From IMG/VR virus record IMGVR_UViG_3300020055_000012, positions 1-64,000 of that record: 64,000 nt of DNA. The stretch is one strand, 5' to 3'. Shown in pieces: positions 47,590 through 48,286 of the stretch. Each line of letters opens with the position of its first letter. The stretch's first letter is position 1. The DNA is from a virus. Below the pieces are notes generated by a model that did not search any database, was not told the DNA's origin, and saw only the letters and a list, made by a program, of their open reading frames with translations. Position numbers and translations under genes: made by a program.

Positions 47590-47664
47590 ATGAAAAAGTA
47601 TAACTCAATATCAATAATTAGAAGGATAAGAATAGAGTCTTGTCCCTGTCTAGATATTGTATAA
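47590..47664 (+). CDS. Putative attenuator leader peptide 1 (MKKYNSISIIRRIRIESCPCLDIV)
   Basis: Read by hand. Codons 7-15 are ATA TCA ATA ATT AGA AGG ATA AGA ATA. It precedes a terminator and the AUA/AGA-reading tRNAs. Confidence 0.75.
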   Translation: MKKYNSISIIRRIRIESCPCLDIV

Positions 47665-47685
47665 ATTTGAGTTATCAAAAATACT

Positions 47686-47722
47686 AAAAGGTCTGGGCAG
47701 AATTGTCTAGACCTTTTTTTTT
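47686..47722 (+). terminator. Attenuator terminator upstream of tRNA cluster 1
   Basis: AAAAGGTCTGGGCA gaat TGTCTAGACCTTTTTTTT. Confidence 0.8.
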
Positions 47723-47756
47723 GTCGTAAATATTAGCTGTTTTTGCGACAAAAAAC

Positions 47757-47828
47757 ACTCTAGTAGCTCAGTGGTCAGAGCACCAATCTTATAAGTTGGA
47801 GGTGAGGGTTCAATCCCCTCCTAGAGTA
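47757..47828 (+). tRNA. tRNA-Ile(UAU)
   Basis: ACTCTAG/CTAGAGT acceptor stem; CCAAT-CTTATAA-GTTGG anticodon arm. Confidence 0.88.
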
Positions 47829-47925
47829 CAAGAAGAAAAAAATAATTTTATTTTTTGTAATAAAGTTATATATTTGTCGTTAGATAAGAGAAGGTTCTTT
47901 GAAATGTTGGAAAAGTAATTTAAAT

Positions 47926-48209
47926 GGACGGGTAGCTCAGCTGGATAGAGCATCTGCCTTTAAGCGTAAATAGGAGCTAAATAGTGGAAACGCTATTGTG
48001 CACAAACCCTCAAATTCGGTGAAGCCTTTAAAATGGTAATACCGAGCCAAGCCCAAACGGGAAGGTGTAGAGACTTGACGGGGGTTGTCTAAGTCACTTT
48101 GTGATATGATTGAGATAAAGTCCAGACCACAAACGAATTTTCGGTAGTGAAAACTATAGTTGGTAAGCTAAGCAGACGGTCGAAGGTTCGAATCCTTCCT
48201 CGTTCACCA
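47926..48209 (+). tRNA. tRNA-Arg(UCU) interrupted by a group I intron
   Basis: The 5' half GGACGGG...TCTGC CTT joins the 3' half CTAA GCAGA...CTCGTTC ACCA, giving the spliced loop CTTCTAA. Confidence 0.88.
47961..48167 (+). ncRNA. Group I self-splicing intron (207 nt, no ORF)
   Basis: The exon ends in U and the intron ends in G. Core elements: AAATTCGGTGAA, AATACCGAGCCAAG, GTAGAGACT, GATAAAGTCC. Confidence 0.88.
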
Positions 48210-48212
48210 TTA

Positions 48213-48286
48213 GGTCCTATAACTCAGTTGGTTAGAGTATCTGACTCATAATCAGAAAGTCCTTGGTTCGAGCCCAAGTGGGACCA
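48213..48286 (+). tRNA. tRNA(CAU), probably Ile2 (lysidine-modified, AUA-reading)
   Basis: GGTCCTA/TGGGACC acceptor with C4-G69 and C5-G68; TCTGA-CTCATAA-TCAGA arm; resembles Ile2 more than Met. Confidence 0.7.

Follow-up and report, generated by a model that had tools for sequence, protein, structure and literature searches.

A putative leader-peptide transcription attenuator ahead of tRNA genes in an uncultured salt-marsh phage

The window analysed in the present study comprises positions 1 to 64,000, the initial 64 kb, of the IMG/VR virus record IMGVR_UViG_3300020055_000012, a contig of 79.4 kb with a G+C content of 30%. From position 47551 onwards, a promoter-like region is followed by a short open reading frame (ORF), an intrinsic terminator, and three tRNA genes (Table 1), and this segment, referred to here as the 47590 unit after the start of its ORF, is considered as a candidate leader-peptide attenuator of the tRNA genes. 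The elements stand in the order of a trp-type attenuator: a promoter-like box, the ORF containing the sensor tract, then an antiterminator segment, and finally the terminator. The window was nearly complete in DNA runs from salt-marsh metagenomes, and the virus is an uncultured salt-marsh phage. No close cultured relative was found, the neighbouring SNF2 helicase being at most 31% identical to any phage record; 17 related viral loci sharing the SNF2 gene were used as relatives of the locus, and the SNF2 protein of the distant relative G004 is 47% identical. None of the phage genes has a Shine-Dalgarno sequence. Gene starts are preceded by A/T-rich sequence, and a TAnnTTTG box often lies a few bases upstream, a combination characteristic of Bacteroidota hosts; only these two features suggest a Bacteroidota-type host.

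Table 1. Positions of the attenuator elements, tRNA genes, and further leader units in the window.
Feature	Position	Strand	Basis or remark
Promoter-like region (TTTG at 47551-47554; -7-like box TATATTTA at 47573-47580)	47551..47580	+	Sequence; putative promoter function
Leader ORF, 24 codons + TAA, MKKYNSISIIRRIRIESCPCLDIV	47590..47664	+	Read from sequence; ATG start
Hairpin 1 (segments 1:2)	47600..47675	+	Fold of 47590-47726
Sensor tract, codons 7-15: ATA TCA ATA ATT AGA AGG ATA AGA ATA	47608..47634	+	Sequence
Segment 2, antiterminator strand CUGUCUAGAU	47646..47655	+	Predicted to pair with 47691-47700 in the nascent transcript
Intrinsic terminator (segments 3:4)	47686..47722	+	14-bp stem, then T-run
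TGTTTTTG, TAnnTTTG box with one mismatch, between terminator and tRNA-Ile	47738..47745	+	Sequence
tRNA-Ile(UAU), AUA reader	47757..47828	+	ARAGORN; Rfam tRNA model, 73.8 bits
TATATTTG box, putative own promoter of tRNA-Arg (bypass)	47869..47876	+	Conservation and RNA contig starts
tRNA-Arg(UCU), AGA/AGG reader	47926..48209	+	Exon 1 47926-47960; exon 2 48168-48209; CCA encoded
Group I intron, 207 nt	47961..48167	+	Rfam Intron_gpI, 60.9 bits (gathering score 50)
tRNA(CAU)	48213..48287	+	Resembles lysidine-type tRNA-Ile2
Unit 2, ORF MSHDDNKSGFKRVCYDVS	49435-49551		Two protein genes, then tRNAs Ser, Lys, His, Asp, Asn, Val, Phe, Met
Unit 3, ORF MKNLKTYRNIEPTITGTCPAYGWNNTGVFNDRLYMK	54453-54618		Before tRNAs Ala, Tyr, Gly, Trp, Pro, Ile(GAU), Arg(ACG), Thr, Cys

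The isoleucine codon ATA and the arginine codons AGA and AGG occupy seven of the nine codons at leader positions 7-15. In a six-frame scan of the whole 79.4-kb genome, at least seven such codons in nine occurred at only three loci, the other two of which are off-frame GAA/GGA repeats within genes, and the leader holds these codons at 7 of 23 positions in the ORF frame versus 2 of 23 and 3 of 23 in the other two frames. Because ATA (62% of Ile codons) and AGA plus AGG (94% of Arg codons) dominate the codon usage of the phage, what is odd about the leader is its density of Ile and Arg rather than its choice among synonymous codons. An ORF on the minus strand (47559-47678, TTG start) was set aside, no feature being found in its support.

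The unconstrained fold of positions 47590-47726, with a minimum free energy of -45.8 kcal/mol (z -7.5), consists of the long hairpin 1 followed by the terminator. Hairpin 1 is predicted to hold the sensor tract in its 5' half and the antiterminator segment together with the stop codon in its 3' half. The terminator is composed of a 5' arm (47686-47699), a four-nucleotide loop (GAAU), a 3' arm (47704-47717), and nine T residues (47714-47722), the last of which lies 34 nt before tRNA-Ile. The predicted pairing of segment 2 with the terminator 5' arm (2:3) amounts to -14.0 kcal/mol, a value reached by 0.75% of dinucleotide shuffles of the upstream 96 nt (P = 0.0075) and by 1.5% of other 96-nt windows of the genome; of the 21 terminators predicted in the genome, no other has so strong an upstream complement, the runner-up reaching -8.9 kcal/mol. 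To follow the nascent RNA, transcripts lacking the terminator 3' arm were folded with the nucleotides covered by a ribosome masked. In this model, the 2:3 helix was present when nucleotides 1-43 or 1-58 were masked, corresponding to a ribosome stalled at codons 10-15, and lost when nucleotides 58-86 were masked, corresponding to one at the stop codon. An earlier note on the window, drawn up from its letters alone, had described the 24-residue leader with its seven Ile/Arg sensor codons in nine and had proposed that a leader segment nearly duplicating the terminator 3' arm captures the 5' arm with two G:U pairs, being left free by a ribosome stalled in the tract and covered by one that reaches the stop codon. 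The description of the leader holds, CTGTCTAGA at 47646-47654 is indeed a near copy of TGTCTAGA in the 3' arm (47704-47711) able to pair with TCTGGGCAG of the 5' arm (47692-47700), the helix extends to 10 bp and includes three G:U pairs, and mask folding gave the outcome predicted for both ribosome positions.

In searches with Rfam, the whole window yielded only tRNAs at the gathering score, and in positions 47500-48350 at E values up to 10 all matches within the leader were sub-threshold and included no T-box. The RT-14 (29.6 bits versus a gathering score of 48.1) and L20 leader (19.5 bits versus a threshold of 58.7) matches over 47604-47725, as well as those to assorted small-RNA families, all below threshold, were treated as chance.

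One other version of the leader was found, a single sequence shared by three relatives (L002, L008, and L035; L002 below). Its ORF differs at 14 of 75 positions in nine codons, seven of which are changed nonsynonymously and two synonymously, and the start codon, the stop codon, and the length of 24 codons are all kept. Six of the nine sensor positions hold sensor codons (ATA, ATA, AGG, ATA, AGA, AGA), and one ATA-to-AGA change replaces Ile with Arg yet stays within the sensor set. When 14 substitutions were placed at random, the ORF remained intact in 11% of trials, and an intact ORF with at least six of nine sensor codons was obtained in about 1%. The antiterminator strand of L002, GCCUAGAU, would form 8 bp, one U:G pair having become C:G; its leader folds likewise (z -5.6) and gave a matching outcome in mask folding. 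L002 has exactly the same terminator hairpin and T-run (36 nt), and the flanks are about 80% alike. In addition, the promoter box and the leader of L002 are separated by a 53-codon ORF for a membrane protein, and translation of the leader would therefore be independent of a leaderless start. A pattern anchored on tRNA-Ile(UAU), searched against viral and metagenome contigs, recovered only the variant of L002, L008, and L035, the 14 other metagenome loci that it returned being unrelated tRNA-Ile(UAU) genes without a leader. A leader-pattern search for further variants of the 47590 unit found nothing new, and five matches to the terminator pattern, in unrelated G+C-richer contigs, were rejected as chance. 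Other relatives have neither the leader nor tRNA-Ile, and their tRNA-Arg has only the conserved TAnnTTTGTCGTTA box ahead of it.

The strongest support for an attenuator lies outside positions 47590-48286, in further leader units of the same design. Two of these are in the window (units 2 and 3), and G004 has three, placed before tRNA genes for Gly/Met/Val/Trp/Tyr/Pro/Ile/Asp/Ala/Thr/Cys, for Phe/Asn/His, and before three Lys tRNA genes, respectively. Alternative 1:2, 2:3, and 3:4 helices were predicted in all six units. No tRNA of any cluster lacks a cognate codon in the corresponding leader, and the codon enrichment of each leader is highest for its own cluster (z 2.8-4.0). The true pairing of leaders with clusters ranks first among 720 permutations, and the ORF frame exceeds both other frames in six of six units. 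Among 516 small ORFs of the genome, the 54453 ORF is the only one covering all nine tRNAs of its cluster, and the 49435 ORF is likewise the only one covering all eight among 234 small ORFs of 12-18 codons. The content of the leaders tracks that of the clusters, as in G004, where the cluster that has taken up the Val, Met, and Asp tRNA genes is also the one with V, M, and D gained in its leader. Isoacceptors are also partitioned: ATA and AGA/AGG are used in the 47590 leader, which precedes tRNA-Ile(UAU) and tRNA-Arg(UCU), the two leaders ahead of tRNA-Ile(GAU) use ATT for five of five Ile codons and ATA for none, versus 62% ATA genome-wide, and the 54453 leader, ahead of tRNA-Arg(ACG), includes the very rare CGC within its tract. 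In unit 3, tRNA-Ala starts 12 nt past the T-run of the terminator at 54588 and the sole promoter box lies upstream of the leader; read-through is thus a necessity there. The terminator of unit 2 differs between the window and the relative L010 by two compensatory pair changes. Units 2 and 3 share the nucleotide motifs ACATATCGCAA, GGGTGTG, ATACACACCCG, and GTTCGGGTTTTTTTATGCTTAAA, with their ORFs in different frames, and the 47590 unit has no sequence relation to either. A pattern search for variants of the 54453 leader found nothing.

Transcription of the locus was assessed with contigs of four metatranscriptome runs placed on positions 46800-48800, in which stretches without contig cover are uninterpretable. 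Contig X17 (232 nt, from one marine run) covers 47599-47830 with zero mismatches and a T-run shorter by one T, and spans the leader, the terminator, and the whole of tRNA-Ile. The start of transcription is predicted at about 47585, giving a 5' untranslated region of 2-5 nt; X17 begins 14 nt past this point and ends 2 nt past the discriminator base of tRNA-Ile, and the 800 nt upstream of it have no contig cover. X17 fits a precursor that was initiated at the leader promoter and read through the terminator. The TATATTTA box of this promoter is unchanged in L002 and resembles the TATATTTG boxes ahead of gene 48848, the 54453 leader, and tRNA-Arg. The earlier note had suspected the TATATTTG box at 47869 of being a bypass promoter, and this is supported both by its conservation as TAnnTTTGTCGTTA before tRNA-Arg or tRNA-Glu in four relatives (L001, L015, L002, and L005) and by contigs in two runs of another study, which start at 47891 and 47893, 15-17 nt after the box, and extend through unspliced tRNA-Arg. 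The TGTTTTTG box before tRNA-Ile, the L002 counterpart of which (TATTTTTG) matches TAnnTTTG perfectly, could be a weak bypass promoter.

Considering these results, we put at about 0.7 the probability that the 47590 unit is a ribosome-mediated transcription attenuator controlling read-through into the phage tRNA genes. The corresponding claim of the earlier note, an attenuator sensing AUA and AGA/AGG codons ahead of the tRNAs that read them, is supported by the anatomy of the unit, mask folding, the L002 variant, the five further clusters, and X17; translation of the ORF, stalling, and the switch itself are inferred. We propose the following scenario. Transcription would start at about 47585, and the 24-codon ORF would be translated at once. 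When AUA and AGA/AGG are decoded slowly, the ribosome would linger in codons 7-15 and hold the 5' half of hairpin 1 open, and the freed segment 2 would pair with the emerging 5' arm of the terminator, which could then not form. The polymerase would continue through tRNA-Ile(UAU) and, meeting no further stop, through tRNA-Arg(UCU) and tRNA(CAU). When decoding is fast, the ribosome at the stop codon (47662-47664) would cover segment 2 and the terminator would form, and with no translation at all the terminator would likewise form, segment 2 being sequestered in hairpin 1. The outcome would be negative feedback on the supply of the readers of AUA and AGA/AGG.

Several points weigh against this scenario. 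ATA and AGA are already the default Ile and Arg codons of the phage, and from the 47590 leader alone sensing at the codon level cannot be told apart from sensing at the amino-acid level. The leader ORF has no Shine-Dalgarno sequence, though neither does any other gene of the phage. In the nascent RNA, the 2:3 helix has the lowest predicted energy even without a ribosome (-27.4 kcal/mol), and termination without stalling would therefore need kinetic persistence of the first-made hairpin 1. The 47590 unit is known in two sequence variants only, and the terminator is identical in both, leaving no covariation to be seen in this unit. The RNA support consists of one contig with a depth of 3.6, from which no ratio of terminated to read-through transcripts is obtainable, and DNA carry-over as the source of X17 is not formally excluded. 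Either form of the box before tRNA-Ile, TGTTTTTG or TATTTTTG, could render the switch partly redundant. Furthermore, tRNA-Arg has its own promoter, backed by RNA contigs, and the switch would therefore gate tRNA-Ile(UAU) directly and only add to the expression of the other two tRNAs. Finally, the tRNA clusters of three relatives (G001, G002, and G003) have a promoter and no leader unit, and the design is thus not shared throughout this phage group.

Among the alternatives, the one that survives best, though we regard it as unlikely, is that the hairpin at 47686 is a plain terminator of an upstream unit, that the ORF and the complementary segment arose by chance, and that tRNA-Ile is transcribed from its own downstream promoter. 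A layout of terminator then promoter is common, and G003 has exactly that before a tRNA cluster; the TAnnTTTG-like box between the terminator and tRNA-Ile, perfect in L002, could serve as the promoter, and the default status of ATA and AGA and the small number of variants, just two, are also compatible with it. However, chance would have to account for a frame-specific codon run found at one of three such loci in the genome, for an antiterminator that is an outlier among 21 terminators, and for an ORF whose sensor codons have outlasted 14 substitutions. A plain terminator is also at odds with the matched-codon layout at five other clusters, with their pairing at rank 1 of 720, and with X17, which runs from the leader through the terminator into tRNA-Ile and not into the upstream gene. 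Slightly less likely still is a real RNA switch that is driven not by the ribosome but by some other factor from phage or host (an antitermination protein, for example, or direct contact with a tRNA), and that would put the tRNA genes under temporal control. In its favour, antitermination is often used by phages for the timing of gene expression, alternative structures were predicted in all units, and units 2 and 3 are homologous at the nucleotide level despite the different frames of their ORFs. A factor of this kind would leave unexplained why the units hold open ORFs with frame-specific enrichment for the codons of their own clusters and why leader content follows tRNA content in G004, and neither a T-box nor another known leader family was detected with Rfam. 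That the terminated transcript of 135 nt (47585-47722) is itself the product, as a two-hairpin small RNA or the mRNA of a functional 24-residue peptide, is very improbable: a promoter box, two hairpins, and a terminator are the layout of a small RNA, and excerpts of PMC6614838 and PMC7298713 describe attenuator-derived RNAs and leader peptides acting in trans (rnTrpL and peTrpL of Sinorhizobium), but the peptide is poorly conserved (seven nonsynonymous versus two synonymous codon changes) and no target or known RNA family was found (best Rfam match RT-14, below threshold), and such a product would in any case be compatible with an attenuator, so that both could hold.

The three units of the window might together constitute an isoacceptor-resolved surveillance of the host tRNA pool, in which each block of tRNA genes is switched on only when the host readers of its codons are short. 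We offer this wider reading tentatively, as possible but doubtful. The 47590 unit would test AUA and AGA/AGG, and the 54453 unit AUU and CGC among others; shortage might arise from heavy demand by the phage, from host shut-off, or from anti-phage anticodon nucleases. Under such surveillance, the phage tRNAs would be an inducible counter-measure and not a constitutive codon supplement.

The tRNA genes downstream of the 47590 leader have features of their own. In tRNA-Arg, the group I intron is inserted within the anticodon, between positions 34 and 35, with the 5' exon ending in U and the intron in G, and ARAGORN missed this gene because of the interruption. L001 and L015 carry intron-less versions of the gene, from which the joined exons differ at 2 nt, and over 154 nt the intron core shows 75.5% identity to Pelagibacter phage HTVC120P. 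RNA contigs carry unspliced tRNA-Arg, one of them comprising the intron and the start of exon 2. A joint of 47960 to 48168 was seen in RNA at a depth of 1725 and is not assignable to this phage, because the intron-less tRNA-Arg genes of relatives are identical around the joint; the other RNA joints in the runs belong to tRNAs of other organisms. The best full-length Escherichia coli matches of tRNA(CAU) are annotated as tRNA-Ile with a CAT anticodon (74.7% identity), and the acceptor stem, the anticodon arm, and the T arm of the gene at 48213 are like those of E. coli tRNA-Ile2, which is not the case for the CAU tRNA at 51186. It is probably a second AUA reader, and the first cluster may thus hold two.

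Other observations concern the remaining clusters. Between genes 49569-50087 and 50222-50434, a G+C-rich cloverleaf at 50114-50199, conserved in L010, has an 8-bp acceptor stem, a long variable arm, and a UGA anticodon. Its match to the tRNA-Sec model is sub-threshold (30 bits, E = 0.0015), and ARAGORN calls tRNA-Ser(tga) at the corresponding place in L008. We regard it as a probable, if odd, tRNA-Ser(UGA); the one TCA codon in the 49435 leader that is otherwise unexplained would then have its reader. The tRNA-Lys(UUU) gene at 50526-50598 was found with Rfam (53.4 bits) and not with ARAGORN under default settings. The second tRNA cluster is immediately followed by an HNH endonuclease gene (51481-51984; Pfam HNH_5, E = 2.5e-17), the position of which is kept in L010. 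In G004, a 262-nt structured RNA within a tRNA cluster (L043 1172-1433, minus strand) has a sub-threshold match to class A bacterial RNase P RNA (39.2 bits versus a gathering score of 100, E = 1.5e-9) and may be a minimal phage-encoded RNase P RNA. In G003 (L042, 192900-194300), ARAGORN predicted a tRNA-Leu(UAA) gene with an intron of about 700 nt that apparently contains an ORF; this gene adjoins those for tRNA-Asn, tRNA-Met, and tRNA-Arg(UCU) in a cluster with a plain terminator-then-promoter layout and no leader ORF.

To our knowledge, hardly anything is known of how phage tRNA genes are regulated, and a full-text literature search found no paper on leader-peptide attenuation of tRNA genes, an absence that is not proof. 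Why phages carry such genes has been under debate for decades, the main views set out in an excerpt of PMC10264068 being compensation for codon usage and replacement of tRNAs destroyed by host defences. If the attenuator is real, the phage would measure decoding capacity and supply tRNAs on demand, isoacceptor by isoacceptor, and would do so in Bacteroidota-type hosts, in which the coupling of transcription and translation is little studied. The unit is compact (promoter to tRNA, about 240 nt) and open to direct tests; the long-standing question of the purpose and timing of phage tRNAs would thus become directly testable as well.

Of the known regulatory systems, the T-box riboswitch is likewise a leader with terminator and antiterminator that reports the state of a particular tRNA. 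In a T-box, uncharged tRNA itself is bound, by way of a specifier codon and the conserved T-box sequence, and no translation is required, whereas the phage unit has a translatable ORF with many cognate codons; no T-box was found in positions 47500-48350 with Rfam, either at the gathering score or at E values up to 10. The pheST attenuator of E. coli, with its pheM leader, subjects a component of translation, phenylalanyl-tRNA synthetase, to leader-peptide attenuation. It thus also concerns the translation apparatus, but its target is a synthetase protein and it senses one amino acid, whereas the targets of the phage unit would be tRNA genes and its signals the codons of isoacceptors. Leader-peptide attenuators of amino-acid operons are described in general terms in an excerpt of PMC1183508. 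With the enterobacterial trpL, hisL, pheL, leuL, thrL, and ilvL, the phage unit shares a short ORF in which regulatory codons form a run, a 1:2 hairpin enclosing this run, and a 2:3 antiterminator competing with a 3:4 intrinsic terminator, in which a ribosome that finishes the ORF covers segment 2. The multivalent thrL and ilvL are the closest examples because, as in the phage leader, more than one amino acid is sensed, two in the case of the phage. The phage unit differs from these enterobacterial attenuators in being phage-borne, in its lack of a Shine-Dalgarno sequence, in its Bacteroidota-type promoter boxes and nearly leaderless mRNA, and in having no sequence similarity to them. It would control three tRNA genes and not genes for the biosynthesis or transport of amino acids; the feedback would therefore act on decoding capacity, that is, on tRNA supply, and classical attenuation would be extended to it from the supply of amino acids.

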